Shown here one piece after another: positions 6,844-62,896 of a stretch of 64,000 nt of DNA; position 1 is the stretch's first letter; each line of letters starts with the position of its first letter. Below the pieces are notes generated by a model that saw nothing but the letters and a program-made list of their open reading frames with translations, did not search any database and was not told the DNA's origin. A program made the translations under genes and the position numbers. The stretch is from Myxococcota bacterium (GTDB lineage Bacteria; Myxococcota_A; UBA9160; UBA6930), in the NCBI GenBank assembly GCA_965223415.1, contig OZ245002.1, positions 320,001 to 384,000 of the forward strand, written 5' to 3'.

Positions 6844-7070
6844 GGGTGGCCTCCGCTCGAGGGGAGGCCGCGGGGCCCCCCTCCCCGCCTCCGGAGAGAG
6901 CAAGCGCCATGCCGCGGGGGCGCAGCGCTGGCGCCGGGAGGCCCGGCGAGACGAAGCACGGGGCCCAACCCGCCCCCCGGCCTGCGGCACCTCGCCCCAG
7001 CCAGGCGGCGGAGAGCGAGCCTCGATCCGCCCTGCGTGGTACGGAACATGCGAAACGGCACACCGGGAGG

Positions 7071-12973: not shown

Positions 12974-12996
12974 GGCGGGCAGCATACCGCGGAGGA

Positions 12997-13671: not shown

Positions 13672-13686
13672 GAAGGCGGACCGGGC

Positions 13687-14613: not shown

Positions 14614-14686
14614 GCGGGCCTCCGTTCGGTGGAGGCGAGAGGGTAGCGTCGCTTGCGAGCGAGGTGGCGTTCGTTATCAGCACTCC

Positions 14687-28800: not shown

Positions 28801-30934
28801 GGCCGTTGCCGTCCACGTCCGTGGCCAATACCGAGAAGCTCAGGGTCTGACCGGGCAAGACCGTGCGGTCGCCGACCATCACGATCGTGGGCGCGTTGTT
28901 CACCAGACCGACGGCGACGGTCACCGTCTCCGAGGCGGTCTGGACGGGGCTGCCGGCATCGGTGGCCGTGATGGTCATCGTGTGACTTCCGACGTCCGCC
29001 GCACCCGGGGTCCAGCTGAAGTTGCCCGTGCCGTCCCCATTGTCCACGAAGCTCGAGCCAGCCGGGGCGCCGCTCACCGCGCAGGAGACGGCGTCGCCGT
29101 CGGGATCGGTGGCGCTCACCTGGAAGGCGACCAGCTGGTTCGTGTTGGCCGCGTGATTGCCGATCGGAGCCACCGTCGGCGGGCGGTTCACGTCGCCCAC
29201 CGTGATCGTCAGGGTCTCCTGATCCTGGGCGACGGGAGCGCCGTCGTCGGTGGCCGAGATCGTGATGGCGTAGTTCCCGGCCTCGCCGAAGCCCGGGGTC
29301 CAGGCCAGGGTGCCGGTGCCGTCGCCGTTGTCCTGGAGCGCGGCGCCCAGCGGGGCGTTGGCGAGCTGGAGGACGAGCCCGTTTCCGTCCGGATCGGTGG
29401 CGCTCACCGCGAACTGCAGGAGCTCGCCCTCGTTCACCGAACGGTCTCCGATGGCCGCGAGCACCGGCGGACGGTTGACGTCGCCCACGGTGATCGTGAT
29501 GGATTCGGTGGCGTTCAGGACCGGCGTTCCGCCGTCCATCGCGGTGAAGCTCACCACGTGGTTGCCGCTCTGGGCGAAACCCGGCGTCCAGGCGAAGCTT
29601 CCGGTGCCGTTGCCCGCGTCCGTGAAGGTCGCGCCCTGGGGCAGCCCGGAGGCCTGGAGCGTCAGCGCGTCGCCGTCCGGATCGCTCGCCATCACGGTGA
29701 GCTGGAGGGCGACGCCCTCGTTCACCGTCTGGTTGCCGATCGGCGTGAGGAGCGGCGCCCGATTCACGTCGCCCACCGAGATCGTGATGGTCTCGGAAGC
29801 GGTGGCCGGCGGTGCGCCGTCGTCGGTGGCGCTGAAGGTCACGTCGAAGTTGCCCGTCTGGCCGAAGCCCGGCGTCCAGCTGAAGCTGGCGGTGCCGTCG
29901 CCGTTGTCGGCGAAGGCGGCGCCGGAAGCCAGATTCGCAGCAGCGAGGCTCAGGCCGTCGCCGTCCGGATCGCTCGCCGAGATGGTCAGGGCCAGCGTGT
30001 CGCCTTCGTTCACGCCCTGGTTGCCGATGGGCACGAGCGCCGGCGGGCGGTTCACGTCGCCCACGGTGATCGTGATCGACTCCGCGTCCGAAAGCGGGGG
30101 AGTGCCGTTGTCCGCGGCAGTGAAGTTGACGGAGAAGCTGCCGGCCTGGTCGAAGGCGGGCGTCCACGAGAAGGCCGCAGTGCCGTTGCCGGCATCGTTG
30201 AAGCTGGCGCCCGTCGGGAGGTTGCCGGCGGTCAGCGTGAGCGGGTCACCGTCCGGGTCGCTGGCAGAGAGGGTGAGGGAGAGCGTGCCGCCCTCGTTCA
30301 CGCTCTGGTTGCCGATCGGAGCCAGGACCGGTGCCTGGTTCGCGTTGAAGATCGTGATCGACACGGTCTCCATGGCGGTGCCGGAGCCATCGCTCACACT
30401 GAAGGTGACGCTGTAGATGTTCGCTTGTCCCACGGCGGGGGTCCAGGCGAAGGAGCCCGTGCCGTCGCCGTTGTCGGTGAAGCTCGCGCCGCTCGGAAGC
30501 GGCGTGGCGGTGAGACTGAGGGTGTCGCCGGCATCCGGATCCGTCGCCGTGACCGTGAAGGCCAGGGCCTGGCCCTCGGTGCCCATCTTGGCGCCGATGG
30601 CGGCCAGCACCGGCGGCTGGTTGGCGGCGGGACAGAAGAAGCCGTAGTTGCCCGCATCCCAGGCTGCGGATTCGGCGGCTCGCGCGTTGCCGGAGTTCGG
30701 CAGCACGGCGGGGAAGCTGCTGTCGTGGCACAGGGTGCACTCGACGAAGAACACGGCGGGGTCGATGAGGTCCGCGTACGGGGTGCCGCGGCCCTGACCG
30801 GAGCAGAAGGCGTCCACGGTGGGGCCGAAATCGGAGGAAGCCTGCGCGCCGTCGGCAGTGCCGAAGGACAAGGCCAGGGCCAGGCCCAGCAGGGCCGTGC
30901 CGATGCGGCGGCGGAGGAAGGGGAAGCGCGTCAT
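25820..30934 (-). CDS. Large exported protein: heme c - 7 Ig/cadherin-like repeats - two basic domains - Gly linker - heme c - LamG - C-terminal domain
   Basis: Start ATG 30934 (GAGG RBS); signal peptide; CTLCH and CASCH; LamG motifs YSIEAWV, LQHVVMTFD, YVNG, AIHERALT. Confidence 0.85.
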   Translation of the reverse strand: MTRFPFLRRRIGTALLGLALALSFGTADGAQASSDFGPTVDAFCSGQGRGTPYADLIDPAVFFVECTLCHDSSFPAVLPNSGNARAAESAAWDAGNYGFFCPAANQPPVLAAIGAKMGTEGQALAFTVTATDPDAGDTLSLTATPLPSGASFTDNGDGTGSFAWTPAVGQANIYSVTFSVSDGSGTAMETVSITIFNANQAPVLAPIGNQSVNEGGTLSLTLSASDPDGDPLTLTAGNLPTGASFNDAGNGTAAFSWTPAFDQAGSFSVNFTAADNGTPPLSDAESITITVGDVNRPPALVPIGNQGVNEGDTLALTISASDPDGDGLSLAAANLASGAAFADNGDGTASFSWTPGFGQTGNFDVTFSATDDGAPPATASETITISVGDVNRAPLLTPIGNQTVNEGVALQLTVMASDPDGDALTLQASGLPQGATFTDAGNGTGSFAWTPGFAQSGNHVVSFTAMDGGTPVLNATESITITVGDVNRPPVLAAIGDRSVNEGELLQFAVSATDPDGNGLVLQLANAPLGAALQDNGDGTGTLAWTPGFGEAGNYAITISATDDGAPVAQDQETLTITVGDVNRPPTVAPIGNHAANTNQLVAFQVSATDPDGDAVSCAVSGAPAGSSFVDNGDGTGNFSWTPGAADVGSHTMTITATDAGSPVQTASETVTVAVGLVNNAPTIVMVGDRTVLPGQTLSFSVLATDVDGNGLGFTASGVPAGASFTDNGDGTSMFSWTPGATNTGSVVVTFTVTDDGIPAMSDQETVKIAIQGVASGFGISDATWWDTWKGQLVVTGAGASAGSTVEIIDADTGLVVGTVIAAADGTFTTGQCRTIKRRRGKKRRRVIRECLLPIQAPCEVQVRSGANLGLRTPVTNSVLQCGNGSPTLLQGSAVLKRMKRKRHDLMVVGDHALANQDVEIRDAETDALLQTVTADASGRFSWTDIRPAAVPCFVRLAAANQFSDPIPVQRKRKGKRGMRQLCPDPVSFPPPGPTASGGNGGAVGGNGGTGGGSGSGSGSGSGNTGGGNAGGGNTGGGNTGGGSGGGVDPVEQAMIDAFSQTVHPLNTQYCASCHDGSTGIGRPDIAHPDPTSAYRATYLTQKVNLTQPYASRLVQRLADGHFCWGDCADDAETMRAAIAMWAVLVGNTGNGGGQQSVTSGQQTMADGVEGGGNLRYDDAVIARWEFKEGTGNIARDTSGVMPALDLSLAGVDWLGGGGIEIKSGRAVASQMLSRKLYDELADPTTGTQEYSIEAWVFPEKIDQRGPARILTYSVDPYNRNFMLGQQNYQYAARNRSRASGISSNGTPTLYTDDDDRDLATELQHVVMTFDQTNGRRVYVNGVWTDDVDRNGGGTLDNWNPSYRFAIGNELTNNRLWKGKVYFAAIHERALTPAEILSHALAGFEERFLLRFDVSQWTGQAGSVIEMTVSDYDPFSYLFSHPTYVGPTGAGIAIRNLRIMVNGQVPVAGQAFRSIDTVASQSPQALSSLGSVIAKDQGPANDVFSIAFEVLGDNTDVVIDNDAPVVPGGFTTEVSPETGLRNFDQINDTMSVLTGVPKDTGSVERTFEGLTQQLPGSNDLRGFVSAHQVGAFKLGIEYCDRMVESRTLRENLFGTGFRFGADTFTAFQDPSAKQLIADRLVERFYGTGLADQPDTAQTRPHLVQLIDDLTTECTSPAACDREHTQSVVKAACTAVISSGPVLFH
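28620..30626 (-). repeat. Seven tandem ~96-aa (~288-nt) Ig/cadherin-like coding repeats
   Basis: Units of the form N(R/Q)xP.L..IG...V.EG..L...ATDPDG...P.GA.F.DNGDGT..F.WTP...V.F...D.G...ET..I.VG, counted seven times; boundaries approximate. Confidence 0.9.
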
Positions 30935-30995
30935 GTGGGACCTCGTGTGGTCGAGGGTTCGCGTCGGAGGCTTGCAGCGGGCTCGGCTGGGTCGA

Positions 30996-32198
30996 TCAAT
31001 CACCCATGCACCAGGTGGCGACCTCGGCGAAAACGCGCCTCATGCTGCGACCGCCCGTCTCGAAGACGTCGGCGATGCGCTCCACCTCGTCCCGATCCTC
31101 TTGCGAGCTCACGGGACGGAGGCAGAGTTGGCTGAAGACCTTCTCCACCTGGCAGACGGCGAACTGCCGACTGCCGGCCAGCTCCTGGCCGAGACTCTTG
31201 GGTCCCCTCCCCTCTCCCGTACCGGCTCCCCATCCGACCGCGGCGTTCGGTCCGTGACGCCAGTAGTTCGTCCAGCTGTCGTCCGGCGTGACGTAGCCGA
31301 ACGGGAAGCTGCTGGCGTTGACGAAGTACTTGGCCTGCACCTCGCCCGGCGTGTAGACGACCCGCCCCGCGTCGGCGTCCCACTCGAAGTAGGCGAATGC
31401 CTGGGCGAGCGGATCCATGCCGGTGTGACAGCCGGAGCAGTTGTTCAGGAAGACAGAGCTGTCGCCGCCGGGCGAGCGCGAGATGTCCTGGCGGATGCGG
31501 TCCGTCGGACGGGTCGTGTCCTTCAGGCCCTCGAGATCCGTGCACAGGAAGTTCATCGCAGCGAAGCGGAGCATTCGTCGGTTGGTGCCGGCCCGGAAGA
31601 AGGCCTCGCCGGCGGCGCGGGTGGTCATCACGCCGGCGGTCGCCGAGCTCGGCAGCTGGGAGCCGGGAAGGCCTGACTGGGACACCGCCATCAGCACGCC
31701 GGGATTCGACAGGTCGGCGCCGGAACCCTCGAGGGCTTCGTAGTGGCGGTTGTCGTCGTGGGCGTAGGGAACCTCGACGACGCCAGGGGACCCGATGTAG
31801 ACCATGTCCGCGGAGAGCACCCGGTCGAAGGGCACCTCGTCCCGGATCATCCCGATCGCCGTGGCGGAGTAGTCGTTGAGCGGCGCGAAGACCGTCTGCG
31901 CCTCGTTCGTCCAGGGCGTGACGAAGTTCTTCAGCGTCGAGGAGTAGAAGAGCGGATTCTCCATCGCGCGATAGGCGGCCTGTGCGGGCTGGCCCGCCTG
32001 GATGGCGTCCTGCATCTCCTGGAGAACGTCGTCCGCCGGAGGCACGCCCGCGAGGCGGTCGTGCATGCGCCGCGCCTGGTCGCGGGCTCCCGCCCAGGAT
32101 GCCGGGGAAGTGAACAACAGACATGCTCCCGCCAACAGCAGGACCACGGCTCGCCCTCCCCAGCGACGCCCCGGTTGGAAGAAATCCGGCTTGACCAT
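30996..32198 (-). CDS. Exported monoheme c-type protein (uncharacterised)
   Basis: Start moved to ATG 32198 (GGAG RBS); signal peptide ending SWA; ARRMHDRLAGVPP; a single CSGCH followed by MDPL. Confidence 0.8.
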   Translation of the reverse strand: MVKPDFFQPGRRWGGRAVVLLLAGACLLFTSPASWAGARDQARRMHDRLAGVPPADDVLQEMQDAIQAGQPAQAAYRAMENPLFYSSTLKNFVTPWTNEAQTVFAPLNDYSATAIGMIRDEVPFDRVLSADMVYIGSPGVVEVPYAHDDNRHYEALEGSGADLSNPGVLMAVSQSGLPGSQLPSSATAGVMTTRAAGEAFFRAGTNRRMLRFAAMNFLCTDLEGLKDTTRPTDRIRQDISRSPGGDSSVFLNNCSGCHTGMDPLAQAFAYFEWDADAGRVVYTPGEVQAKYFVNASSFPFGYVTPDDSWTNYWRHGPNAAVGWGAGTGEGRGPKSLGQELAGSRQFAVCQVEKVFSQLCLRPVSSQEDRDEVERIADVFETGGRSMRRVFAEVATWCMGD

Positions 32199-32398
32199 GG
32201 TGTCTCCCGCGAACCCGACGAAAACATGAAGCTCGTCTTCAGGGACGCAGTGATCCCATCGACCACGCCTTCGAGGCCGCTGGTGAGCCAACTCACGGCG
32301 ACTGGCCGGACGCAACGCGGCAGACAAGCCGCAGGTGTCAGGCAGGCGAGGGCCGCAGGCGTGGGCCGCGGCGGGAGATGCCACGCGGCCGGAATTCG

Positions 32399-32412
32399 GT
32401 GACGTCCGACAC
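32399..32412. promoter_or_regulatory. GTGACGTCCGACAC motif (CRP/FNR-like GTGA-N6-ACAC)
   Basis: 13/14 identical to 33414..33427; lies in the 229-nt gap upstream of 32198. Confidence 0.45.
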
Positions 32413-32427
32413 GTCCCGGATTCGCGC

Positions 32428-33300
32428 CTACTTCCAGCTGGTGGTGTTGTGGCAGATCTCGCAGATGTCCGGTGACGGGATGTGCCCCGGGTGCTTCCCC
32501 GTAGCCAGGACGCCATTGTGGCAGGTGAAGCACCCGCTCGTGATACCGGTGTGATCCATGACGCCGCGTCGGAAGTCCACCGTGTCGTGGCAGGCCTCAC
32601 AGCGGTTGTGGGTCGGGATGTGGTTCCGGTCCTTGCCCGGCGCCCTTCGACCGTCATGGCAGCTGGTACAGCCGTTCTTGATTCCGGTGTGGTTCATCCG
32701 CGCGCTGGCGAAGCGCACCACGTCGTGGCAGTCCTCGCAGCGATTCGACGTGGGCAGGTGGTCGCGGGTCTTGCCTGTTGTGCGGGACCCGTTGTGACAG
32801 CTGAAGCAGGCGCCGGTGATGCCCACGTGGTCGAAGCGGGCCCGCCGCCAGGTGAAGGTGGTGTGGCAGTCCTCGCAGCGATTCGACGTGGGCAGGTGGG
32901 CGGCGTACTTGCCCTCGGCCCAGGCCCCGTTGTGGCAGGCGCCGCAGGGATCCGTCACGTCCATGTGATCGAAGCGGGCGTGGCTCCAGGTGGCCGTCGT
33001 GTGGCAGTCGTCGCAGCGATCCGAGCTCGGCACGTGGTTCGCCGGCTTGCGGGTCCAGCCGGAGAGCCCCGCCCCACCGTGGCACGCGACGCAGGCGTCC
33101 GGCGTCGCGCCGAACTCGCCGCCCGGGTGGCAGCTCTCGCAGGCCGCCCGGGCGTGTCCCCCGGTCAGGGGGAAGCCCGTCGTCCAGTGGTCGAAGTCCT
33201 CGTAGTCCACCGGTTGGGTCGCGGCCGGTGCCGCCAGGAGCAGGACGAGCGCCAGCGCCCCGAGGGCCCGATGCGGTCCTGTGCGCCCGGTCGCAGTCAT
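32428..33300 (-). CDS. 11-heme c-type cytochrome
   Basis: Signal peptide; 11 CxxCH counted; ~46-aa two-heme repeat (F/M)(D/N)H....CxxCH(N/D)G...GK...H.P(T/S)...CxxCH. Confidence 0.93.
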   Translation of the reverse strand: MTATGRTGPHRALGALALVLLLAAPAATQPVDYEDFDHWTTGFPLTGGHARAACESCHPGGEFGATPDACVACHGGAGLSGWTRKPANHVPSSDRCDDCHTTATWSHARFDHMDVTDPCGACHNGAWAEGKYAAHLPTSNRCEDCHTTFTWRRARFDHVGITGACFSCHNGSRTTGKTRDHLPTSNRCEDCHDVVRFASARMNHTGIKNGCTSCHDGRRAPGKDRNHIPTHNRCEACHDTVDFRRGVMDHTGITSGCFTCHNGVLATGKHPGHIPSPDICEICHNTTSWK

Positions 33301-33413
33301 GTCCGTCCTTCCGATCCCGTCCGCGCCCTGGGGCGGCGGGGCCCCGGCACGAACCGGCAGCTACCCGGCCCGGGGCCTCAATTCTCCTACTCGTCCGATC
33401 GATGGAAGAACTT

Positions 33414-33427
33414 GTGACGTCTGACAC
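33414..33427. promoter_or_regulatory. GTGACGTCTGACAC motif within TGTGA-N6-ACACA (CRP-like box)
   Basis: One mismatch from TGTGA-N6-TCACA; lies between the divergent cytochrome and porin genes. Confidence 0.45.
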
Positions 33428-33449
33428 ACCGGCCCGAGCCGGCCCGTCG

Positions 33450-36095
33450 ATGGACACCACGGGTGAGACCCGTGGCGTCGAGGAGTGCCCGTTGCTGGCT
33501 GCACACAGGAGAGGAGGCGATGGCCGGCCCTGGCGCACGGGTGTGCGGGCCGTGGCGCTGCTCCTCCTCCTCGCGCCGCTGGCCGCCGACGCCCAGACGG
33601 CTCGGGGGCGCCTGCTCCGGGGCCTGGAGTTCGCTTCGGGCGGCCGCGAGATCCACGTCCGCATGGGCGTCCCGGTGCGCTACGTGCGGCACGCCCCGGC
33701 CGGCGCCAGCGATCGGTTCGAGGTCGAGCTGACACCCCTCGCCCAGGATCGGGTCGACCTGCTGTCCGAGCGCGGCGACGAGGCCCTGCGGGCGCCCGCC
33801 GCCGCCGGCAGCCCGCTGCGGGAGGTGCGCTACCAGGGCGGACGACGGCGCGAAGCCCGCTTGGAGCTGCGCTTCACCGAGACCGTGCGCATCGACGTCC
33901 GGCAGGGCTCGGACCTGCGCAGCCTCGTGGTGACCGTGGAGAAGCGTCGCCCTCGGCGAAAGCCGGCTCCGAGCCCGGAGCCCGCACCGGTCCCGGCCCC
34001 CGTCGCGCCGGAGCCCGAACCGCCCGCGATGACAGCGACACCGGACGCGCCGGACGCACTCCGCCATCCCTACGCGATCCAGCTCCACGCCGGCCCCGCG
34101 GCGGAACCCCTGCCCGACGTTCCCGACGGTCTGTTCAGCGCGGGCCTACAGCTCTACGAGGTGCCCCTCGAACGCGATGGCGAGGCCTGGCGTCGCCTTC
34201 GGGTGGGCTTCTTTGCCGACGAGGCCGAGGCCCAGGCAATGCGAGACCGCGTCGCCACCACCTTCCACGATGCGTGGGTCGTCCGCGCGACCCCCGAGGA
34301 GAGGGGAGCGGCTCCGCGAGCGAAGACCCACGCGGAGCGGGCGACGCCGCGAGCGGACGGCGTCGGCGACCGGCAAGCGGCTCCGCGTGCGGCCGCGCCG
34401 GAGACCCGCGAAGCCGCGGCACGAGAAGACACGGCCGAGATCCTGCCCGCCCCGTCGCCACCGGTTCCCGCGGCTCCGCTCCCGGCCGAGGACGCGGAGC
34501 TCGTGGCCCGCCTGCTGGGGGAGGGCCACGACGCGCTGGCCGCCGGCGAGCAGGAGCGTGCGGTCCAGCTCTTCACCAAGGTGCTCGCCTTCCCCGAGAA
34601 CCCTTCCACCCCCGAAGCCCTCGAGTGGCTCGGCCTCGCCCGCGAGCGCAAGGGCCAGCTCGCCCACGCCCAGGCCGAGTACCAGGCCTATCTGGAGCGG
34701 TATCCGGAGGGCGAAGGCGCCGTCCGTGTGCGGCAGCGCCTCGACGCGTTGCTCACCGCCCGTTCCGAGCCCACGCCGGCACTCCGCCCGGCGGCCACGA
34801 CCCGGCGCGCCAGCGACTTCGACGTCTTCGGCAGCGTCGCCACCGCCTACCGCCGCGACGAGCGAGAGGCCCGCGGCCTTGGCGACTTCCTCGTGGACTC
34901 GGCGTTCTTCAGCGACGTCTTCGTCGGGAGCCGCTGGCAGAGCGAGCGTTGGGACGTGCGCGGCGAGATGTCCGGAACCCACCTCTACGACTTCATCGAC
35001 GACGACACGGACTGGCGGGCGAACACCCTCTTCCTCGAAGCCCTCGGCCGCGGCCAGCCCTGGGGCTTCGGGGTGGGGCGGCTGCCGGGCAACCGGGCCG
35101 GGGTGATCGGCCGCATGGACGGCGTGCGCCTGAGCTACGAGCTGCAGCCCGGCTGGCGCCTTGGCAGCGTCGCAGGCTTCCCGGTCGACCCCTTCCTGCA
35201 GTCGACCCCGGACACGGATCGCCAGCTCTTCGGGCTGAGCCTGGAGACCCTCGAGCTCGTGGAGGGCGTGGACGTCGAGCTCTTCGCCATCCAGCAATGG
35301 GCGGAAGGCCTCACCGATCGAAGCGCGGTCGGCGCGGAGCTTCGCTATGCGGCGGAGGGGCGCTTCCTCGCCGGCCTGTTCGACTACGACCTCCACTTCG
35401 GCGCCCTGAATACGGCCTTCTTGATCGGGAACCTGCAGCTGCGCCCGGACACGGACCTGAACGTCCTCCTCGATTGGCGGCGCCTGCCCACCCTGGAGAC
35501 GCGCAACGCGCTGCTCGGGCAGCCCGACGACTCCCTCGACGACCTGAGGGATCGGCTGGGCGTGGGCGATCTCGAGTCCCTGGCCGAGGACCGCACGGCC
35601 CGCTCGCGGTCGGCCAGCCTCGGACTCACCCACCGACTCAACGAGCGCTTCCAGGTGTCCGGCGACCTCACGCTCTCGGACCTCTCGGGCACGCCGGCCT
35701 CCGGGGGCATCGAGGCCTTCGAGGGCACCGGTCGGCAGCTCTCGAGCTACCTCCAGGTGACCGGTACCGAACTCCTGCTGGCGGGCGACGTGGGCACCCT
35801 CGGCCTTCGCTGGGTGGACGCCCGGGAGATCGACGTGGTCGGCCTGCTGTGGAGCTGGCGATCGCCCCTGTGGCGACGCTTCCGCCTGAACCCGCTCCTC
35901 GATCTCGAGTGGCGGAGCCCGGACCGGGGCGGGCGCGTGTTCACCGTGCGCCCCGGGCTGCGGGTGGACATGACCCTGGGCCGGCTGACCCTCGACGCGG
36001 AGGGTCACTACATCTGGTCCGACGGCGCGCGCTTCCCGGGCGTCGAGGACGAGCAGGGCTACACGCTGCTGCTCGGCGTCCGATACGACTACTGA
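33450..36095 (+). CDS. Outer-membrane beta-barrel (porin-like) fused to periplasmic SPOR and TPR domains
   Basis: Start uncertain (33402, 33450 or 33543). Signal peptide ALLLLLAPLAADA; SPOR-like YAIQL...WRRLRVGFF...DAWV; TPR ALEWLGLARERKGQ..A..EYQAYLERYP; amphipathic strands ending LGVRYDY. Confidence 0.8.
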   Translation: MDTTGETRGVEECPLLAAHRRGGDGRPWRTGVRAVALLLLLAPLAADAQTARGRLLRGLEFASGGREIHVRMGVPVRYVRHAPAGASDRFEVELTPLAQDRVDLLSERGDEALRAPAAAGSPLREVRYQGGRRREARLELRFTETVRIDVRQGSDLRSLVVTVEKRRPRRKPAPSPEPAPVPAPVAPEPEPPAMTATPDAPDALRHPYAIQLHAGPAAEPLPDVPDGLFSAGLQLYEVPLERDGEAWRRLRVGFFADEAEAQAMRDRVATTFHDAWVVRATPEERGAAPRAKTHAERATPRADGVGDRQAAPRAAAPETREAAAREDTAEILPAPSPPVPAAPLPAEDAELVARLLGEGHDALAAGEQERAVQLFTKVLAFPENPSTPEALEWLGLARERKGQLAHAQAEYQAYLERYPEGEGAVRVRQRLDALLTARSEPTPALRPAATTRRASDFDVFGSVATAYRRDEREARGLGDFLVDSAFFSDVFVGSRWQSERWDVRGEMSGTHLYDFIDDDTDWRANTLFLEALGRGQPWGFGVGRLPGNRAGVIGRMDGVRLSYELQPGWRLGSVAGFPVDPFLQSTPDTDRQLFGLSLETLELVEGVDVELFAIQQWAEGLTDRSAVGAELRYAAEGRFLAGLFDYDLHFGALNTAFLIGNLQLRPDTDLNVLLDWRRLPTLETRNALLGQPDDSLDDLRDRLGVGDLESLAEDRTARSRSASLGLTHRLNERFQVSGDLTLSDLSGTPASGGIEAFEGTGRQLSSYLQVTGTELLLAGDVGTLGLRWVDAREIDVVGLLWSWRSPLWRRFRLNPLLDLEWRSPDRGGRVFTVRPGLRVDMTLGRLTLDAEGHYIWSDGARFPGVEDEQGYTLLLGVRYDY

Positions 36096-36166
36096 AGACC
36101 TCCTACGCAGGGGTTTGCGTGATCGCGCTCACCTCTTCGTGGGCAGGATCCCGCGATGGAGCACCC

Positions 36167-37501
36167 GTGAGCAGCTTCGAGGCAGCTTGGCTCCCGCCGG
36201 TGGCGCTCTACGGCGTCCCCCTCCTGTTGGGGTTGTCCCTCTATTTCCGCGGGCGCAGACGGAAGGAGCGCCGGGCCCTCCATGACCTGCGCCGGAGCCG
36301 AGACATCGGTCTCGACGAGCCGGTGTCCATGCATCCGGTCATCAACGGCAACCGCTGTATGGGTTGCGGCGTCTGCGTGGACGCCTGCCCCCACGGCGAC
36401 GTCCTCGGGGTGATCGGCGGTCAGGCGGAGCTCGTCAACCCGACGGAGTGCATCGGTCACGGCGCTTGCACGGCGTCGTGCCCCACGGACGCGATCCGTC
36501 TCGTCGTCGGGAGCGAGCGGCGCGGCGTCAACGTCCCCGTGCTCGGCCCGGACTTCCAGACCAACGTGCCGGGCGTCTTCGTCGCCGGCGAGCTCGGCGG
36601 GATGGGCCTGATCCGCAACGCGATCGAGCAGGGACGCCAGGCGGTGGAGTCGATCGCGAAGCTGCCGGGGGTGGGCAGCGACGATGACCTGCTCGACACG
36701 GTGATCGTCGGCGCCGGCCCGGCGGGCTTCGGCGCTTCGCTCACAGCGCTCCAGACGGGCCTGCGCTTCGTCACCCTCGAGCAGGAGAAGCTCGGCGGCT
36801 CCCTCGTCCACCATCCGCGGGGCAAGATCATCGTGACCCACCCGGTCGAGGTGCCGCTGGTCGGCGCCGTGGACATGCGCGAGACCCACAAGGAGGAGCT
36901 CCTCTCCTTCTGGGAGCGCGTGCGACGGGAGAAGGGCCTTCGCGTCCGCGAGAACGAGCGGGTCGAGGCGGTCGCCCGGCGCTCGGACGGGACCTTCGAG
37001 GTGCAGACGACGCGCGCGACCTACGAGACCCGCAGCGTGCTCCTCGCCGTGGGCCGGCGCGGCACGCCCCGCAAGCTCGAAGTGCCGGGCGAGGAGACGA
37101 GCAAGGTCGTGTACTCGCTCTCGGACCCGCGCCAGTACAGCGGGAAGAAGGTGATCGTGGTCGGCGGTGGCGACAGCGCGCTCGAGGCGGCGGCTTCCCT
37201 CGCGAAGGAGAAGGGCACGCAGGTGATCCTGGTCCATCGCGGCGAAGGCTTCCCGCGGAGCTGCGCCCGCAGCCGCGAGCTGGTGGAGGAGGCGGCCTGC
37301 GCTCATGGCCTCGAGGTCTGGCTGCACAGCCAGGTCCGCGAGATCCGGCCCGACGCGGTGGTCGTCTCGACCGGGGACGGAACCCGGGAGGTCCCGAACG
37401 ACGCGGTGTTGGTGTGCGCCGGCGGCATCCTGCCGAACGACTTCCTGCTCAAGATCGGCGTCGAGATCGAGACCAAATTCGGGACCCCGGTGAACGCATG
37501 A
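36167..37501 (+). CDS. Membrane-anchored 2x[4Fe-4S] ferredoxin / FAD-NAD(P)H oxidoreductase (TrxB/FNR-like)
   Basis: GTG 36167 with GGAG RBS; TM followed by RGRRRKERR; CMGCGVCVDACP and CIGHGACTASCP; VGAGPAG; VVGGGDSA. Confidence 0.88.
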   Translation: MSSFEAAWLPPVALYGVPLLLGLSLYFRGRRRKERRALHDLRRSRDIGLDEPVSMHPVINGNRCMGCGVCVDACPHGDVLGVIGGQAELVNPTECIGHGACTASCPTDAIRLVVGSERRGVNVPVLGPDFQTNVPGVFVAGELGGMGLIRNAIEQGRQAVESIAKLPGVGSDDDLLDTVIVGAGPAGFGASLTALQTGLRFVTLEQEKLGGSLVHHPRGKIIVTHPVEVPLVGAVDMRETHKEELLSFWERVRREKGLRVRENERVEAVARRSDGTFEVQTTRATYETRSVLLAVGRRGTPRKLEVPGEETSKVVYSLSDPRQYSGKKVIVVGGGDSALEAAASLAKEKGTQVILVHRGEGFPRSCARSRELVEEAACAHGLEVWLHSQVREIRPDAVVVSTGDGTREVPNDAVLVCAGGILPNDFLLKIGVEIETKFGTPVNA

Positions 37502-39477
37502 AGCGGATCGGTTGGACGCTCGCCCTGTGGCTGGCGGGCGCGGCCCTGCTGCCCGCGCCGAGCCTGGCCGCCTCGATCGAAGACGTGCAGATGGCGATCC
37601 GCACCCGGGACTTCGCCCTCGCGGCCCGCCTGTGCGACGAACTGGCCCGAGCCGGCGTGCCCGAAGCCCAGTACCAGATGGGCGTGCTGCTTCGCTCGGG
37701 GCGCGGAGTGGAGAAGGACCTGGCCAAGGCGCGCCATTGGCTCGGGCGTGCCGCCCTGGCTGGCCACGCCCCCGCCCAGTACCAGCTCGCCCAGCTCTAT
37801 CGCAACGGCTGGGGCGGGCCGGCGGATCCCGATCGCGCCCGGGCCTGGCTCTCGGCGGCGGCAGCCCTCGGTCACGAGCCGGCCGCGCGGGCCCTGGAGG
37901 CGGCGGAGGCCGCCGGCGGCGTGACGAGCGCGCGGGATGCGGGCCCCGAGGAGGACGCCAACGAGCGTCTGGAGCGGGCCCTGCGGAGCCGGGACGTGAC
38001 CGCGGCCCGCGCCGCCCTCGGCGCCGGCGCCGACCCGAACGGGGCCGATGCGACCGGTGCGCCGCTCCTCCACCTGGCGGTCGGCCTGGACGCGCCGGCG
38101 GTGGCGGAGCTGTTGCTGGCGGCCGGAGCGCGGGTCGACGCGGTCGGGCGGGACGACGAGACCGCCCTGCACCTCGCTGTACGCACGGGAGGCGACGCGG
38201 TGCTTCCCCTCCTGCTCGCCGCGGGCGCCCCTCCGGACGCGAAGGACGCCCTGGGCGCGACGCCCCTGCACCTGGCGGCCCGGCGCGGGAGCCGCTCGGC
38301 GACGACGCAGCTGCTAGGCGCAGGCGCCTCGGCGGACGCGCGAGACGAAGCCGGCCGGAGCCCCCTCGACCTCGCCCGGGCGGCGGACCACGGAGCCGCG
38401 GCCGCGACGCTGCTTGCGGCCGGCGCCTCGGAGAGGACGCGACCGGCACCGGCACGCCGATCGGCGCGCTGGATCGCCGAGCAGCCGGCTCCCGAGGCGG
38501 GCTGGACGCCGCTGATGGCGGCGGCCTGGCGCGGCGAGGACGCGTTGGTGGAATCCCTGGTGCGTGCGGGAGCAGCCGTCAACGAGCGGGGCCCGGACGC
38601 GCACACCGCGCTCACCCGGGCCGCATGGGCCGGGGCCGAGGCGACGGTCGCACGGCTCCTCGCCGCCGGAGCCGACCCGAAGGCGCGCACCGAGGCCGCG
38701 GACCGCGGCGCCCTCTCCTGGGCGGCCGCCGAGGGCCACGACGGCGTGGTGGCGCGATTGCTCGTCGCGGGCCTGCCGCCGGACGAGACCGACCAGGCCG
38801 GGCGGACGCCCCTCGCCTGGGCCGCCCACGGCGGCCACGGAGAGGTGGTCCGCCGCTTGCTCGCGGCCGGGGCCGACCCCAGCCACGCGGACGCCGAAGG
38901 CCTGACACCGCTCGCCCTCGCCCTTCAGGCGGAGAGCGGACCTGCCAGTGCAGCCCTCCTCGAAGCCGGCGTGCGCCCGGACGCCGAGGCACTGTGCCGC
39001 GCGGCCTCGCGAAGCGACGGGGGCGCCTTCGGCGTGCTGCTGCGCCACGGCGGCGATCCGAACCTGACCTGCCCCGACGGCCTCTCCGTCCTGGCCGTGG
39101 CGGCGACCGGCGGCGATCCGGCCCGGGTCGAGGCACTCCTCGACGATGGCGCCGACCTCACCGCCGCCACCCGGAACGGCGACACGGCGTTGATCCTGGC
39201 CGCCGGCCGTGGGCAGCGTGAGATCGTCCGCCTGCTCGCGGAGCGCGGCGCCGACCTCGACCACCGGGGCCACCGCCGCCACACCGCACTGATGCGGGCC
39301 GCGGAAGCCGGACACGTCGAGGTCGTCCGCGACCTCCTCGAAGCCGGCGCCGGCCTGCGCACCCGCAATGCCAACGGGGACACCGCCTTGGCCCTCGCCC
39401 GCCGCGGCGGCCACGACGCCGTCGCGACCCTCCTCGCCCAGCCCCCCGCCGACGCAAGCTGGCTCGACCGCCTCTAG
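37498..39477 (+). CDS. Exported Sel1-like repeat + ankyrin repeat protein
   Basis: ATGA overlap with the upstream stop; signal peptide; Sel1 repeats (AQYQMG.L...G.GVEKD); many G.TPL/TAL..AA..G ankyrin units. Confidence 0.9.
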   Translation: MKRIGWTLALWLAGAALLPAPSLAASIEDVQMAIRTRDFALAARLCDELARAGVPEAQYQMGVLLRSGRGVEKDLAKARHWLGRAALAGHAPAQYQLAQLYRNGWGGPADPDRARAWLSAAAALGHEPAARALEAAEAAGGVTSARDAGPEEDANERLERALRSRDVTAARAALGAGADPNGADATGAPLLHLAVGLDAPAVAELLLAAGARVDAVGRDDETALHLAVRTGGDAVLPLLLAAGAPPDAKDALGATPLHLAARRGSRSATTQLLGAGASADARDEAGRSPLDLARAADHGAAAATLLAAGASERTRPAPARRSARWIAEQPAPEAGWTPLMAAAWRGEDALVESLVRAGAAVNERGPDAHTALTRAAWAGAEATVARLLAAGADPKARTEAADRGALSWAAAEGHDGVVARLLVAGLPPDETDQAGRTPLAWAAHGGHGEVVRRLLAAGADPSHADAEGLTPLALALQAESGPASAALLEAGVRPDAEALCRAASRSDGGAFGVLLRHGGDPNLTCPDGLSVLAVAATGGDPARVEALLDDGADLTAATRNGDTALILAAGRGQREIVRLLAERGADLDHRGHRRHTALMRAAEAGHVEVVRDLLEAGAGLRTRNANGDTALALARRGGHDAVATLLAQPPADASWLDRL

Positions 39478-39488
39478 TCGAGAAACGG

Positions 39489-41045
39489 TCAGCGGTCGAG
39501 GTGGACCTGGGTCCAGTCCTCTTCGTTGTGGCAGCGGGCGCAGTCGCGGCCGAAAGCGCCGCGGTGGATGTCGTCGGCGAAGTGGCAGCTGACGCAGTCG
39601 TGGGCCAGCTCGATGGTCTCGGGGGCCGGGGCGACGTGACAGGTCGTGCAGTCGACGCCGTCGTGGGCGCCGTGGAGGGCGAAGTCGGTCGCGTCGTGGT
39701 CGAAGCGCCAGACGGGCCAGCCGTTCGGGTTGTGGCACAGGGCGCAGGCCTCGGTGAGACGCTGCTCGTGGGTGTCGTCGGGGCGGTGGCAGGCGACGCA
39801 GTCGGTCTCGGCGTCGGCGTAGGCGTGGGTCGCGTGGCAGGCCTCGCAAGCGGCGGTGGCGTGGAGGCCCAGCAGCGGGAAGGCCGTGAGATCGTGGTCG
39901 AAGCCCACGGTCTGCGTCCAGGAGCGCTCGTCGTGGCAGGCAGCGCAGTCCTCCCCCTGCTGGCCCCGGTGCACGTCGTCGCTGGCGTGACAGGACTGGC
40001 AGTCCCGCCCCACCTCCTCGTCCAGCGCACCGGGATGACAGCTCTCGCAGCGCACGTCCGCGTGCTTGCCGAGGAGAGGCCAGTCCGTGTCGCGATCGTG
40101 GTCGAAGCCGATCTTCGCCCAACTCCCCGTGTCGTGACACGCCTGGCAATCCTCCCCGTTGCGCCCGACGTGGACATCGTCGGCGCGATGGCAGGAGACA
40201 CAGTCCTTCGGTGCCGGGTCATCGTAGAGGTGCCCCTCGTGGCAGGCGCCGCAGGCCACGCCGGCGTGCTTGCCCGTGAGCCGGTACTCCGTGTCCCGGT
40301 CGTGGTCGAAGAGGATCGTCTTCCAGTCGAGGGCGTCGTGGCAGTCGCCGCAGCGCGGCCCGAAGCTCGCCGTGTGCACGTCGTCGCTGACGTGACAGGA
40401 GGCGCAGTCGGTGGGCGTGTCCTCGTAGCGCTCGTCCGCGTGACAGAGGCGGCAGGCGGTGTCGGCGTGGGCGCCCTCCAGCGGGAAGTCGGTCGTGTCG
40501 TGGTCGAACTCGGCCTTCTTCCAGCGGACGTCGTCGTGACAGTCGCCGCAATCCTCACCGAGCCCGCCGCGGTGGACGTCGTCGTCCCGGTGACAATCGA
40601 TGCACTGGCTGCTCGCCTCCCGATGCTTCTCGCCTTCGGCGTGACAATCGCCGCAGGGCACGGACACGTGGGCACCATGAAGGGGGTAGTCGGTGAGCTC
40701 GTGGTCGAAGACCGCCGGGTTCAAGCCCACCACGTCGGCATCGCGGCCCTCGTGATCGGTGTGGCAGTCGCGGCATGGGGTCGCCGCCAGCCCCGGGGCG
40801 AGGCCGTGGAAGCCCTCGCCCGCCGTCAGGTCCTCGCCCACCTCCTCGTGACACTCGAGGCACAGCGCGTCCTCGGCGGAGCGGTCGAAGGGCCGGTGGC
40901 AGCTCGTGCACTCCTCCTCCACGTCCGCGTGGCCCTCGATCACCGGACCCGGCATGAGCAGGGTCTCCGGATCGACGGCGTGCAGGGTCGCCGGTCGACC
41001 GAAGAGCATCACCAGACCCGAGAGGACGAGAAGCGCGTGGCGCAT
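39489..41045 (-). CDS. 21-heme periplasmic c-type cytochrome
   Basis: Start ATG 41045 (TGATG overlap); signal peptide; 21 CxxCH counted, as 3 plus six three-heme repeats (FDH..T.FPL.G.H...CxxCH...CxxCH..DD.H...CxxCH). Confidence 0.95.
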   Translation of the reverse strand: MRHALLVLSGLVMLFGRPATLHAVDPETLLMPGPVIEGHADVEEECTSCHRPFDRSAEDALCLECHEEVGEDLTAGEGFHGLAPGLAATPCRDCHTDHEGRDADVVGLNPAVFDHELTDYPLHGAHVSVPCGDCHAEGEKHREASSQCIDCHRDDDVHRGGLGEDCGDCHDDVRWKKAEFDHDTTDFPLEGAHADTACRLCHADERYEDTPTDCASCHVSDDVHTASFGPRCGDCHDALDWKTILFDHDRDTEYRLTGKHAGVACGACHEGHLYDDPAPKDCVSCHRADDVHVGRNGEDCQACHDTGSWAKIGFDHDRDTDWPLLGKHADVRCESCHPGALDEEVGRDCQSCHASDDVHRGQQGEDCAACHDERSWTQTVGFDHDLTAFPLLGLHATAACEACHATHAYADAETDCVACHRPDDTHEQRLTEACALCHNPNGWPVWRFDHDATDFALHGAHDGVDCTTCHVAPAPETIELAHDCVSCHFADDIHRGAFGRDCARCHNEEDWTQVHLDR

Positions 41046-41938
41046 CAGAAGAGGTGCACCGCCACCACGTGGACCGTGGCCGCGGCGAACAGCAGGACCG
41101 CCAGGGGTAGATGGATCGCGTGCCACAGGGCGAAGAGCCGCTCCCAGGCGCTGAACTGGGCGACGCGAACCGCCGCGTTCAGGTATTCGAGGAGGGCGCT
41201 CTCGAGGAAGGCCATGTCGGCGCGTCCGCTCGCCCGCAGCCCGCGCACACAGCGTCGATGCAGGGCGCGACTGCGGGGGCCTACCGTGAAGAAGCGCAGG
41301 AGGGACCCGATCAGCCCCGGCGCCCGATCGAGGGCCCAGCGCTCGTGGGTTTCCAGGACCGGAACGAGCTCCGGCAGCAGGTCGGCGACGCGCTCGACCG
41401 CGCCGAAGCCCTCTTCGCGATCCGTCTCGAGCTCCGCCAGCGCGCGCCGCTCGCCGAACAGTCCGCGGTGGATGCGTGCGTAGAGGAAGCGGCCCACGTA
41501 GCCGCTCGCCGCCACCAGCAGCATGGAGAGCAGCGCGACGCTGCTGTTGAACGAGCCGAGCTGGAAGTTCGAGTGGAACAGGATCGCCGTGGGCCCGACG
41601 ATCCCGAGCACCATGTGGGTGCGGAACCAGGAGGCCAGGCCCCGGGCGCCGCCAGCGGCCCGCCGCCGCTTGCGCACCGAGTAGCCGAGTAGCGCCACCA
41701 GGCAGGTCAGGCCGACGATGCCCAGCGCGTAGCCCGCTCCCCGCTCCGGCGTCAGGTACATCTCATCGCGAACCGACCAGCCCAGGGCGAGGAGTCCGCC
41801 GCAGACCAGCGAGACCAGCCCGATCGTGAGCTCGCGGCGCGGCGCGGCGTGCAGGCGCTCTCGCGCTGCGCGGATCGCGGCATCCTGGTTCGCCCGGGCA
41901 TCCGCCTCGCGCGTCGCGTCGTCGGGAGCGGCCGTCAT
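41045..41938 (-). CDS. Inner-membrane cytochrome b / ferric-reductase-like protein
   Basis: About 5 hydrophobic segments; two His-X13-His pairs (HMVLGIVGPTAILFH and HLPLAVLLFAAATVH). Confidence 0.75.
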   Translation of the reverse strand: MTAAPDDATREADARANQDAAIRAARERLHAAPRRELTIGLVSLVCGGLLALGWSVRDEMYLTPERGAGYALGIVGLTCLVALLGYSVRKRRRAAGGARGLASWFRTHMVLGIVGPTAILFHSNFQLGSFNSSVALLSMLLVAASGYVGRFLYARIHRGLFGERRALAELETDREEGFGAVERVADLLPELVPVLETHERWALDRAPGLIGSLLRFFTVGPRSRALHRRCVRGLRASGRADMAFLESALLEYLNAAVRVAQFSAWERLFALWHAIHLPLAVLLFAAATVHVVAVHLF

Positions 41939-42035
41939 CGGAGTCTCTCGTCGGCAGCGGCGTCACACGCCGTCACCCCTGCATCGGCGATCCCGGGTCG
42001 CGGGTTGACCCGCGGGTCGCCCGGAGGCGGAAGAG

Positions 42036-42404
42036 CTACACGCCGTCCTCCCGCGGGTCGTACTCGACCCGCAGGACCTCGAGCTCTCCCGTGCGCCCGT
42101 CCGTCACGAAGAGGATGCGACCCTGGCCGACGTACCTCCACTCGGTGCGACGCTCGTCACTACCGAGGTAGAAAGGAACGAAGGCCCAGAAGGTCGGATA
42201 GCGGCGATGGGAGGTGGGCCGGCCGAGGGCCGTCCGCACCTCGGCCGTGCCCATGCCCTGCTCCACCAACGCGAAGGGATGGCCGTGAGGGGGCGCGGTA
42301 TAGGCCGGCTCCCGCTGACGCAGCTCGTCGGCGGCGCGCGGCGTGGGATGGGGTGCACAGCCGACGGCCAGGCTCGCGAGGATCAGCAGGGCCCACGCCT
42401 TCAC
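42036..42404 (-). CDS. Small lipoprotein (SmpA/BamE-like fold possible)
   Basis: Lipobox AVGC; GMGTAEVRTALGRP...EWRY pattern. Confidence 0.65.
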   Translation of the reverse strand: MKAWALLILASLAVGCAPHPTPRAADELRQREPAYTAPPHGHPFALVEQGMGTAEVRTALGRPTSHRRYPTFWAFVPFYLGSDERRTEWRYVGQGRILFVTDGRTGELEVLRVEYDPREDGV

Positions 42405-47938: not shown

Positions 47939-48024
47939 GTCCGCTATGGTGCCGGCGGCCGGGGCGGGGCGAGACCCTGCCTGCGCGGCCCGCACGGATG
48001 GAAAGAGGGAGGGGAAGCGCGCCC

Positions 48025-48812: not shown

Positions 48813-49988
48813 TCACGAGGGGCCTCCCCCCGCCTCGGACAGCATGGCGAGCCACTTGTCGACGACGGGCGCCACGGCGAAGTCGCGCGCACGACGGCGC
48901 AGGGCTTCCCGGTCCACCGGCTCGTCCAGGGCCGCGTCGATCGCCCGGGCCAGGGCCTCGGGATCGGCGACCGGCACCAGCTGCCCGAGGCGACCGCCGC
49001 GGAGGATCTCCCGCGGTCCGCTGGGGCAATCGGTGCTGACGATGGGGCAGCCGCAGGCCAGGGCCTGGATCAGGACGCCGGGGAGCCCCTCGTAGGCCGA
49101 GGACAGCACGAGCAGGCGCGCGCGCGCCATCCAGGCGAAAGGGTTGTCGCTGTAGCCGGCCAGCTCCAGATCGGCCTCCACGCCCAGGTCTCTCGCCAGC
49201 GTCTCGAGCGCCCGACGCTCGCGCCCCTCGCCGAGCACCACCAGGCGCGCAACGCGCTGCCGTCGCAGCCGGGCGAAGGCCCGGAGGAGGGTCGGGAAGT
49301 CCTTCTGCGCTGCCAGCCGACCCACCGCCAGCAGGACCGGTGGCTCGCCGGGGGCCAGCCACGGATGGGAGAGGGGCTTCGCCGCCGCCGCCTCCACCCC
49401 AGCGAGGCGCAGGGGATTGGGAAGCACGCGGATGCGCTCCCGCGGCAGGTCCGCCACCCGGGCCAGATCGTCGGCCACCCCCTCCGAGACGGCGACGATC
49501 GCGTCAGCGGAGGGATAGGCGGCGCGCACCCACGGGGCGAGCAGCGGGCGGCGCCGGAACGGGAAGCCCGCGTTGCGGACGGCCCGGGAGAGGTGGGTCC
49601 GCTGGCTCACCACGACGGGAATCGGCTGCCGCGCCAGCCGCCGCGCCGCCAGCAGCGAGAGGTTGACGTAGTGGGAAGCGGCGATCGCGGCCCGCGGGCG
49701 AACGCGCCGGAGGTAGCGGGCGAGCGCCGGCGTGCTGGCCAGGGTGCGGCGCCTCTTGCGAGCTCGCACCCACGGCAGCCGCGCCAGCCCGGCGTCGAGC
49801 TCCACCACCCGGATCGGCGGCGGAACCTGCTCGCGGAAGGGCCCGCGAGCGTGGGGCACCACCAGGTCGACGGGGACGCCCCGCTCGGCGATTCCGCCGG
49901 CCAGCGTGAGCATGGTCCGCTGCACGCCGCCCAGGCCCAGGCCCGTCAGCACGATCGCCAGCGGTGCCGGATCGCCTAACGAAGCCAC
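48813..49988 (-). CDS. GT4 family glycosyltransferase
   Basis: GGVQR, AVSEGVADDL, VGRLAAQKDF, EGLPGVLIQALACG.PIVSTDCPSGPREIL. Confidence 0.92.
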   Translation of the reverse strand: MASLGDPAPLAIVLTGLGLGGVQRTMLTLAGGIAERGVPVDLVVPHARGPFREQVPPPIRVVELDAGLARLPWVRARKRRRTLASTPALARYLRRVRPRAAIAASHYVNLSLLAARRLARQPIPVVVSQRTHLSRAVRNAGFPFRRRPLLAPWVRAAYPSADAIVAVSEGVADDLARVADLPRERIRVLPNPLRLAGVEAAAAKPLSHPWLAPGEPPVLLAVGRLAAQKDFPTLLRAFARLRRQRVARLVVLGEGRERRALETLARDLGVEADLELAGYSDNPFAWMARARLLVLSSAYEGLPGVLIQALACGCPIVSTDCPSGPREILRGGRLGQLVPVADPEALARAIDAALDEPVDREALRRRARDFAVAPVVDKWLAMLSEAGGGPS

Positions 49989-54626: not shown

Positions 54627-54630
54627 GGCG

Positions 54631-62842: not shown

Positions 62843-62896
62843 GAAGAGCTCCTGGACGGCCGCAGCATAGGAACTTTCCCCGGGCGGATCCGCCCG

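Follow-up and report, generated by a model that had tools for sequence, protein, structure and literature searches.

A PCC3-type porin-cytochrome locus of a Myxococcota bacterium with a candidate NAD(P)H input module

The closest described counterpart of the locus reported here is PCC3, a putative porin-cytochrome c complex introduced by He, Barco, Emerson and Roden in 2017 (PMC5566968). Our locus occupies positions 32428-41938 of a 64,000-nucleotide stretch from a Myxococcota bacterium (GenBank assembly GCA_965223415.1, contig OZ245002.1, positions 320,001 to 384,000 of the forward strand), which as a whole is called the window below, and it comprises six genes that we designate A to F in the order of their positions. 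The published PCC3 is a unit of four genes proposed to pass electrons to quinones during Fe(II) oxidation, whereas the locus described here additionally encodes an iron-sulfur (Fe-S) flavoprotein (C) and a Sel1/ankyrin repeat protein (D). The reading towards which we lean is that the six genes form a functional unit of PCC3 type, in which C and the inner-membrane protein F would make up a split enzyme resembling the NADPH oxidases (NOX) that feeds a trans-envelope haem chain in the outward direction and bypasses the quinones.

According to He et al. (PMC5566968), the inner-membrane protein (IMP) of PCC3 has ~300 amino acids (aa) and five transmembrane (TM) helices, with SGXXG on TM4 and WX3HX13H on both TM3 and TM5, and the periplasmic cytochrome has a very high haem count (median 21) at 22-39 aa per haem; hosts named there include Bradyrhizobium (Agromonas) oligotrophicum S58 and Mn(II)-oxidising Erythrobacter. 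In the Gallionellaceae, the second cytochrome carries 10-35 haems (PMC9900912). PCC3 appears in the literature both as a marker gene and as a candidate iron oxidase; its function was still termed unverified in a preprint of 2025 (10.1101/2025.02.27.639646), and its proteins were of low abundance in proteomes of Sideroxydans ES-1 (PMC11429942). The 'PCC3 architecture' of PMC13013709 denotes Geobacter-type conduits and uses the term in another sense.

The published parts can be recognised in the window. Gene F (41045-41938, minus strand) encodes a 297-aa inner-membrane protein with W104x3H108x13H122 on TM3, S145G146xxG149 on TM4 and W272x3H276x13H290 on TM5, all of them invariant in an alignment of 27 sequences, and the helices of its AlphaFold2 (AF2) model fit five TM segments. 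Gene E (39489-41045, minus strand) encodes the candidate periplasmic cytochrome with 21 CXXCH motifs at ~25 aa per haem, arranged as seven tri-haem, c7-like units in which the CXXCH triplets lie ~300 nt apart (Pfam Cytochrome_C7, 5.6e-30, in 6 stretches); its placement in the periplasm is read from the signal peptide that starts at ATG 41045. As in published PCC3, this cytochrome is of low complexity. The 290-aa product of gene A (32428-33300, minus strand) has a hydrophobic N-terminal leader and 11 CXXCH motifs, mostly spaced by 23 aa (~26 aa per haem; Pfam Cytochrome_C7, 7.6e-17, and Paired_CXXCH_1). It falls inside the range of the Gallionellaceae second cytochromes and is a candidate for the outer, extracellular cytochrome, which would be located at the cell surface.

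The porin would be provided by gene B (33450-36095, plus strand; 881 aa from ATG 33450, with an alternative GTG at 33543), whose product has a signal peptide and ends in ...GVRYDY. A periplasmic part of SPOR-like and TPR type is indicated by two weak Pfam matches, to SPOR (21.3 bits, the cut-off being 21) and to TPR_16. For residues 340-881, AF2 modelling from 28 sequences gave a predicted local distance difference test score (pLDDT) of 90.2; in the model, five TPR-like helices lead into 22 beta strands, among which there is one helical insert. When this model was searched with Foldseek, 464 PDB chains matched at E<=1e-3; the top matches listed are all outer-membrane barrels (porins, AlgE, ushers). 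Because these reach TM-scores of only 0.3-0.4, B is, as modelled, an outer-membrane barrel that has no close solved relative. The preliminary description of this DNA had staked its reading on B being a beta-barrel, an expectation that the 22-strand model bears out.

A search of species genomes with the 27-sequence F alignment returned 229 relatives, of which 80 loci were kept; Sideroxydans and Leptothrix are not among these 80. One locus (L066) is that of B. oligotrophicum S58, in which the F homologue is 37% identical to ours (E 1e-49) and the E homologue 44%, and which contains an 18-haem gene and an open frame with 91 CXXCH motifs next to them. Across the 80 loci, 21 is the commonest haem count of the E homologue (43 loci by the positional rule, and 9 more in which the open frame runs further upstream), followed by 18 haems in 12-13 loci and 23-24 haems in 7. 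Most of the related loci have a second multihaem gene after the E homologue, for a product with 9 to 91 haems, and B homologues lie after the cytochromes in at least 27. The likeness to PCC3 that had been noticed from the sequence alone is thereby strengthened in several respects, namely the published IMP motifs in F, an F family that includes a named PCC3 organism, the modal haem count of E and the predicted barrel of B. By these marks the core of the locus belongs to PCC3, with a conserved content and a gene order that is not.

The departure in gene order is plain. Published PCC3 genes are co-directional, whereas the six genes here form three transcription units on two strands and not a single operon: F-E on the minus strand converges on B-C-D on the plus strand, with 12 bp between the stop codons, and A on the minus strand is divergent from B. 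This arrangement, in which the B-C-D operon lies between E and A and runs opposite to both, occurs in 5 of the 80 loci only. Since the window has a G+C content of ~72% and long spurious open reading frames (ORFs) are common in it, genes were placed with a plot of the GC content by codon position (GC3) together with the ORF list. In a six-frame count of CXXCH motifs, two minus-strand ORFs stand out, 32428-33300 with 11 and 39489-41126 with 21; only three more occur in the remainder of the window, and the plus strand has none. These data and the domain scans indicate that all six genes proposed at the outset are real. The two gene overlaps proposed with them can be read directly in the DNA, as ATGA at 37498-37501 on the plus strand, where C stops and D starts, and as TGATG at 41047->41043 on the minus strand, where F stops and E starts. 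Scans of 31900-42300 gave no promoter-like sites and two terminator-like sites, both of which lie inside B and are no more than shuffled sequences give.

Two other families of conduits resemble the locus in part. The logic of a periplasmic multihaem cytochrome threaded through a barrel to a surface cytochrome would be the same as in MtrCAB, MtoAB and PioAB, of which Mtr is fed from quinol by CymA. Membership in this group is not indicated: the DmsE/MtrA family TIGR03508 scores 51.8 bits for A and 24.2 for E against a cut-off of 192.2, the Pfam family MtrB_PioB does not match B, and MtrB is not among the listed top Foldseek matches. The seven tri-haem units of E are reminiscent of the c7-type tri-haem polymer cytochromes of Geobacter, but 'nanowire_3heme' (TIGR04257) gives 32.8 bits for E, under its cut-off of 40, and the genomic context is a different one. 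Besides its two additional genes and its order, the locus differs from published PCC3 in its high-GC host, the nearest loci being labelled Myxococcota or Deltaproteobacteria. The features particular to the window are this host lineage, the B-C-D operon between two cytochrome units, and a short outer cytochrome with 11 haems.

The first question raised by the two additional genes is whether they belong to the system at all. The six window proteins were compared by tblastn with the 80 loci, proximity being defined as within 10 kb of F. Homologues were present for E in 79, for C in 71, for D in 66 and for B in 58 of the 80 loci, whose hosts comprise Myxococcota, Alpha- and Gammaproteobacteria, Binatia, Planctomycetales and others; the nearby C homologues are 48-78% identical to ours. 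Seven of the nine loci without a nearby C have <3.9 kb of sequence upstream of F. A whole-genome search with a 34-sequence C profile uncovered a full-length orthologue (E<=1e-197) in eight of these nine genomes, the ninth being an incomplete 2.2-Mb bin, such that C is present in 79 of 80 F-bearing genomes. In the commonest layout (55 of 80 loci), C, and D with it, lies divergently upstream of F, and 27 of these 55 have B after the cytochromes, on the strand of F; B-C-D are co-linear in 17 loci, 5 of them arranged as in the window and 12 with the three genes upstream of F. That these genes recur together in other genomes, which the preliminary description had required for its reading to stand, thus holds widely, and on this pattern of conservation both the Fe-S flavoprotein C and the Sel1/ankyrin protein D are to be counted as parts of the PCC3 system. 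The notion that B-C-D is an unrelated envelope operon inserted by chance between two cytochrome operons could appeal to the three transcription units on opposite strands and to the SPOR and TPR parts of B, which are typical of envelope proteins, but it is contradicted by the co-occurrence of the same six families in this range of lineages and by the commonest layout, with B after the cytochromes on the same strand in 27 loci, and is extremely improbable.

The composition of C gives an indication of what it might contribute. Gene C (36167-37501, plus strand) encodes 444 aa from a GTG preceded by GGAG, with an alternative start at 36119. The protein consists, in this order, of an N-terminal TM helix, a basic stretch, a ferredoxin domain for two Fe-S clusters (2x[Fe-S]) and a thioredoxin-reductase/YpdA-like domain for flavin adenine dinucleotide (FAD) and NAD(P)H, and its catalytic part is predicted to be cytoplasmic. 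Pfam detects Fer4_10 (Fer4 dicluster) and Pyr_redox_3 (1.3e-41). Among the NCBIfam models, YpdA (TIGR04018) matches at 1.6e-45, at 155 bits against a cut-off of 340, and TIGR01292 at 90 bits against 343; with scores this far under the cut-offs, C is not a member of the thioredoxin reductase or YpdA disulfide reductase families. The nearest solved relatives include ferredoxin-NADP reductases (FNR): 7a76, 7a7b and 3ab1 align with C over ~265 residues of the Rossmann domains at E values of 2e-25 to 5e-20. C shares with these TrxR-type FNR and YpdA/Bdr proteins the FAD and NAD(P)H Rossmann domains, and differs from them by its TM helix, its ferredoxin domain, the lack of a CXXC motif and the position of one segment. 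This segment, VPGxFxAGELGGMGLIRNAxxQG (the GD-motif segment, 156-190), precedes the first GxGPxG in C, while its counterpart in the solved YpdA-type enzymes is the end of the protein. The correspondence was seen in a second alignment with 7a76, at the C-terminus of the latter and below the threshold, and in matches to the C-termini of glutathione reductase and GltD, and it supports, short of proof, a circular permutation of the flavin domain.

The Fe-S motifs of C read CxxCxxCxxxCP and CxxHxxCxxxCP. Alignment of 34 sequences (mean column identity 60%) shows C90, C96, C100, C121, H124, C127 and C131 among the invariant residues, with C93 nearly invariant. The invariant His of the second motif suggests that one of the presumed clusters is His-ligated. 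In the fused forms of F and C described below in which F comes first, the first motif reads CMGSGAC, with Ser replacing the second Cys; together with the invariant His, this suggests that the ferredoxin domain has at its exit a cluster that is His-ligated or of the 3Fe kind. The 34 sequences contain no conserved Cys beyond the Fe-S motifs and no redox-active CXXC, and since the flavin part thus has no conserved Cys, disulfide chemistry is unlikely and C is probably not a disulfide reductase. Two further invariant residues, R384 and R390, follow the second Rossmann motif, at a position which we take to be the one that binds the NADPH phosphate in E. coli thioredoxin reductase.

The likely electron acceptor of C would be F. 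Positive residues are found after TM2 and TM4 of F, which places its N-terminus and the three-helix insert between TM4 and TM5 in the cytoplasm and its C-terminus outside; with this topology, H108 and H276 would lie on the inner side of the membrane and H122 and H290 on the outer side. F is presumed, on the pattern of its motifs, to be a transmembrane wire with two haems b. The AF2 model, computed from 27 sequences with a pLDDT of 86.8, contains five membrane-length helices in addition to the insert. F shares with the NOX and ferric reductase (FRE) family (PF01794) two His-X13-His pairs on TM3 and TM5 that could hold two stacked haems b, as well as the partnership with a cytoplasmic FAD/NAD(P)H dehydrogenase, and fused forms of C and F have six helices in all, as in that family. 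The differences are considerable. The family's dehydrogenase is an FNR-type domain, whereas C combines a permuted thioredoxin-reductase fold with a 2x[Fe-S] ferredoxin; the acceptor would be a chain of multihaem cytochromes rather than O2 or Fe(III) chelates; and the modules are separate proteins in the window. It is by analogy, then, that C and F would work like a NOX, and membership in the family is not claimed.

Evidence that ties C to F beyond their co-occurrence comes from gene fusions. When a sample of 201 genomes of the window's phylum was searched with the F profile, 7 matches were strong and 29 weak, and many of the weak ones sit in open frames of 660-800 aa. The survey for fusions also took in C matches from genomes without an F match; the weaker-tier C-like loci L105, L106, L117 and L118, which do not have CxxHxxCxxxC, were excluded as a different subfamily. 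It yielded 17 fused single open frames in 16 of the 201 genomes, 13 in the order F-C (L087, L089, L090, L091, L096, L097, L098, L102, L103, L104, L107, L108 and L109) and 4 in the order C-F (L119-L122), each of the latter followed by a gene for a 20-haem cytochrome. All of them carry two WX3HX13H motifs, CxxHxxCxxxC and GxGPxG, and each adjoins a multihaem cytochrome gene; in the F-C frames, the C-like module comes with an extra helix and a basic stretch. For the fusion of L091, for instance, the alignment to C has an E value of 3e-103 with 44% identity, and that to F one of 1e-09 with 28%. In the same sample, 35 of the 36 genomes with an F-like match also have a C-type match that spans the ferredoxin domain, and the remaining one (G117) has a partial C-like match 1.8 kb from its F-like gene.

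The fusions extend beyond this sample. Compared with 1.84 billion representative proteins, the L091 fusion had 656 matches at E<=1e-30, and among the best 150 of these 656 representative clusters a count of motifs gave 47 C-F, 4 F-C, 57 stand-alone C and 36 proteins in which C is joined to another part, often TPR. The sources give the fusion proteins generic names, such as 'NAD(P)-binding domain-containing protein' in Archangium and in Myxococcaceae bins, and the fusions therefore account for two stand-alone F homologues named 'pyridine nucleotide-disulfide oxidoreductase'. Both orders fit the predicted topology, in which F has its N-terminus inside and its C-terminus outside and C has a single helix with its positive side after it. 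The F-C order fits because F ends outside and the helix of C returns the chain to the inside, and the C-F order because the cytoplasmic end of C runs into the cytoplasmic start of F. The idea that the conduit has its 'own NAD(P)H input module', which had been put forward from the neighbourhood of the genes, hence gains support of a kind that co-occurrence does not provide.

Several further forms of C and F were seen in these searches. Many C-type proteins of ~950-1380 aa have C at the N-terminus (e.g., P0148, P0154, P0165 and P0170); among these four, which were scanned, a C-terminal TPR-containing extension is found in P0148, P0165 and P0170 and not in P0154, and it stands in place of the separate Sel1/ankyrin gene. 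P0252, from the list of C-type matches, has FHA domains at its N-terminus. At L124 (G155:C51:9000-19000), a stand-alone C-type gene is located downstream of three multihaem genes with 23, 13 and 11 CXXCH motifs, and the 10 kb examined contain no ORF with two WX3HX13H motifs, such that this may be a variant with a different membrane partner. P0121, a metagenomic protein of 631 aa that joins a B-like TPR/barrel start to a complete F, was considered as a C-F fusion and rejected; it is a singleton and probably an artefact of gene calling or assembly.

Built on the gene content, motifs, folds, synteny and fusions described above, the following scheme proposes cofactors, protein contacts, a location for A, a direction of flow and an acceptor. 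C would be held at the cytoplasmic face by its one TM helix and would take hydride from NAD(P)H onto FAD, from which single electrons would pass on through the two Fe-S clusters. In F, the electrons would cross the inner membrane on two bis-His haems b, the first held by H108 and H276 on the cytoplasmic side and the second by H122 and H290 on the periplasmic side. The helix of C, the five helices of F and the cytoplasmic dehydrogenase would together be arranged as in NADPH oxidases and ferric reductases. E, the 21-haem cytochrome, would then span the periplasm and enter or meet the 22-strand barrel B, and the 11-haem cytochrome A at the surface would deliver the electrons to an external acceptor, such as Fe(III) or Mn(IV) minerals, humics, or possibly O2. 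The result would be a predicted protein 'wire' of 32 haems that leads from the inner membrane to the cell surface. The product of gene D (37498-39477, plus strand), an exported protein of 659 aa with a signal peptide, a Sel1 match (3.8e-18) and an Ank_2 match (6.8e-66), its ankyrin repeats occupying most of the remainder, is presumed to be periplasmic and might be a scaffold or an assembly factor. Outward flow could serve as a valve or a respiration-like sink for surplus reducing power.

Electron flow is most likely outward, because NAD(P)H is a strong reductant and because export would run with the membrane potential, whereas import from Fe(II) to NAD(P)+ would have to work against both the membrane potential and the redox drop. 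The outward direction is also favoured by the finding that both PCC3 clusters of Sideroxydans ES-1 were down-regulated on Fe(II) (PMC8788666).

A number of observations weigh against this proposal. F matched no family in Pfam (at E<=0.01) or NCBIfam, the ferric-reductase family PF01794 included, and a Foldseek search of its model against the PDB gave no match at E<=1e-3. A wide search with VIA-align returned generic helical bundles only, with Z scores of, for example, 10.2 for the designed two-haem bundle 7ah0, 8.9 for E. coli CybB (5oc0) and 8.4 for Dcytb; all of these fall in the range stated to be noise for helical proteins, and the comparisons thus do not establish a NOX or cytochrome-b fold. 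At L045 and L078, C is encoded elsewhere in the genome, not adjacent to F, despite full flanks, and within 10 kb of F, D is missing in 14 and B in 22 of the 80 loci, many of them at contig ends. Finally, an outward path that does not pump protons conserves no energy itself, which leaves its physiological value uncertain.

The published model (He et al. 2017) holds that electrons move inward from extracellular Fe(II) or Mn(II) and that F passes them to the quinone pool; C and D would then be accessory or regulatory. It was proposed from gene content and habitats (PMC5566968), and it agrees with the frequency of PCC3 in the iron oxidisers of the Gallionellaceae (PMC9900912) and with a preprint in which the IMP of PCC3 copy 2 of Sideroxydans CL21 rose with iron-oxidising activity. 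Set against this are the fusions of F-like and C-like modules, which occur in both orders and in many lineages, and the presence of C in nearly all F-bearing genomes. The response of ES-1 to Fe(II) also runs counter to the model, no quinone site is known in F, and neither the window organism nor most hosts of the 80 loci are known iron oxidisers. We consider the published model unlikely for this locus. It would be a larger step to regard the whole PCC3 family, the Gallionellaceae copies included, as the output cable of a bacterial NOX-type enzyme, split or fused, and not as an Fe(II) oxidase, and we put this forward tentatively, with somewhat less than even confidence.

If the path does lead from NAD(P)H to the surface, it might end on O2, like that of a NOX-like oxidase, and produce extracellular superoxide for Mn(II) oxidation, iron acquisition or signalling instead of serving mineral respiration. 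Extracellular superoxide production is widespread in heterotrophic bacteria. The predicted layout of C and F is that of the NADPH oxidases, a neighbouring cluster in the ESM Atlas was automatically named 'ferric reductase like' with a score of 0.95, which we treat as a lead only, and a Mn(II)-oxidising Erythrobacter is among the published PCC3 hosts (PMC5566968). But 32 to >100 haems and an outer-membrane barrel would be a costly way to reduce O2, which NOX enzymes do at the membrane, and our literature search found no paper that joins extracellular superoxide, NADH, multiheme and outer membrane. An oxidase of this kind thus appears quite unlikely.

Electron uptake is conceivable as well, with low-potential donors such as cathodes, Fe(0), reduced minerals or partner cells feeding the wire inward and C reducing NAD(P)+ directly. 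TrxR-type ferredoxin-NADP reductases are reversible in principle, and among the hosts of PCC3 are autotrophs and symbionts with a need for NAD(P)H. Inward movement, however, would oppose the membrane potential and would be uphill for donors such as Fe(II), and the hosts considered here are mostly heterotroph-like, such that we regard uptake as very unlikely.

With respect to novelty, the four-gene PCC3 is already published, and the link to the flavoprotein and the ankyrin protein is new as far as our literature search reached. The main text of He et al. 2017 contains no occurrence of ankyrin, Sel1, flavoprotein, FAD or pyridine nucleotide, and in the full-text literature, from which subscription journals and supplements lay outside the coverage, we found no paper joining PCC3 or multiheme systems to an ankyrin or a pyridine nucleotide-disulfide protein. 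As to the PCC3 neighbours in Sideroxydans ES-1, the flanking locus tags were found neither in the literature nor in one supplement of PMC8788666.

Should F turn out to be the haem-bearing half of such an NAD(P)H oxidoreductase, a different direction and role would have to be proposed for a widespread, very haem-rich conduit whose range includes Myxococcota, methanotrophs, sulfur oxidisers, symbionts and rhizobia. With an output cable of NOX type, extracellular electron transfer would have an inner-membrane entry point of a new class, and such a system would be a candidate for the NAD(P)H-dependent origin of the reductant or superoxide that bacteria release outside the cell. A direct test of extracellular electron transfer independent of quinones would then need no more than the two small proteins C and F, or a single natural fusion.

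The surroundings of the locus in the window deserve a brief comment. The organism had been characterised in advance as a lipid-degrading heterotroph. The regions 5338-7311, 12212-15544 and 61811-62896 encode a thiolase-like protein, a short-chain dehydrogenase/reductase (SDR), an esterase/lipase (Abhydrolase_3), an acyl-CoA thioesterase II and a fatty-acid desaturase; these few genes are the sole basis for that characterisation, which they make suggestive only. To the right of the cluster, at 45698-47995, 48813-53292 and 52935-54845, all on the minus strand, are genes for a fused LptF/LptG-type permease, a GT4 glycosyltransferase, an ELM1-like protein and an ABC exporter, which are genes of outer-membrane and envelope biogenesis. 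On the other side, A is followed on the same strand by two genes, which we call G and H. The product of G (30996-32150, minus strand) is ~384 aa long and has a leader, a single CSGCH and a weak match to DUF1585/PSD2, and H (25820-31003, minus strand) encodes 1727 aa with two CXXCH motifs, seven cadherin-like/He_PIG repeats and a LamG domain. Homologues of G and H follow A in L003 and L004 and are found upstream of F in L078, a Thioalkalispiraceae bin, in the place usually taken by C and D, and G and H may be a further surface component.

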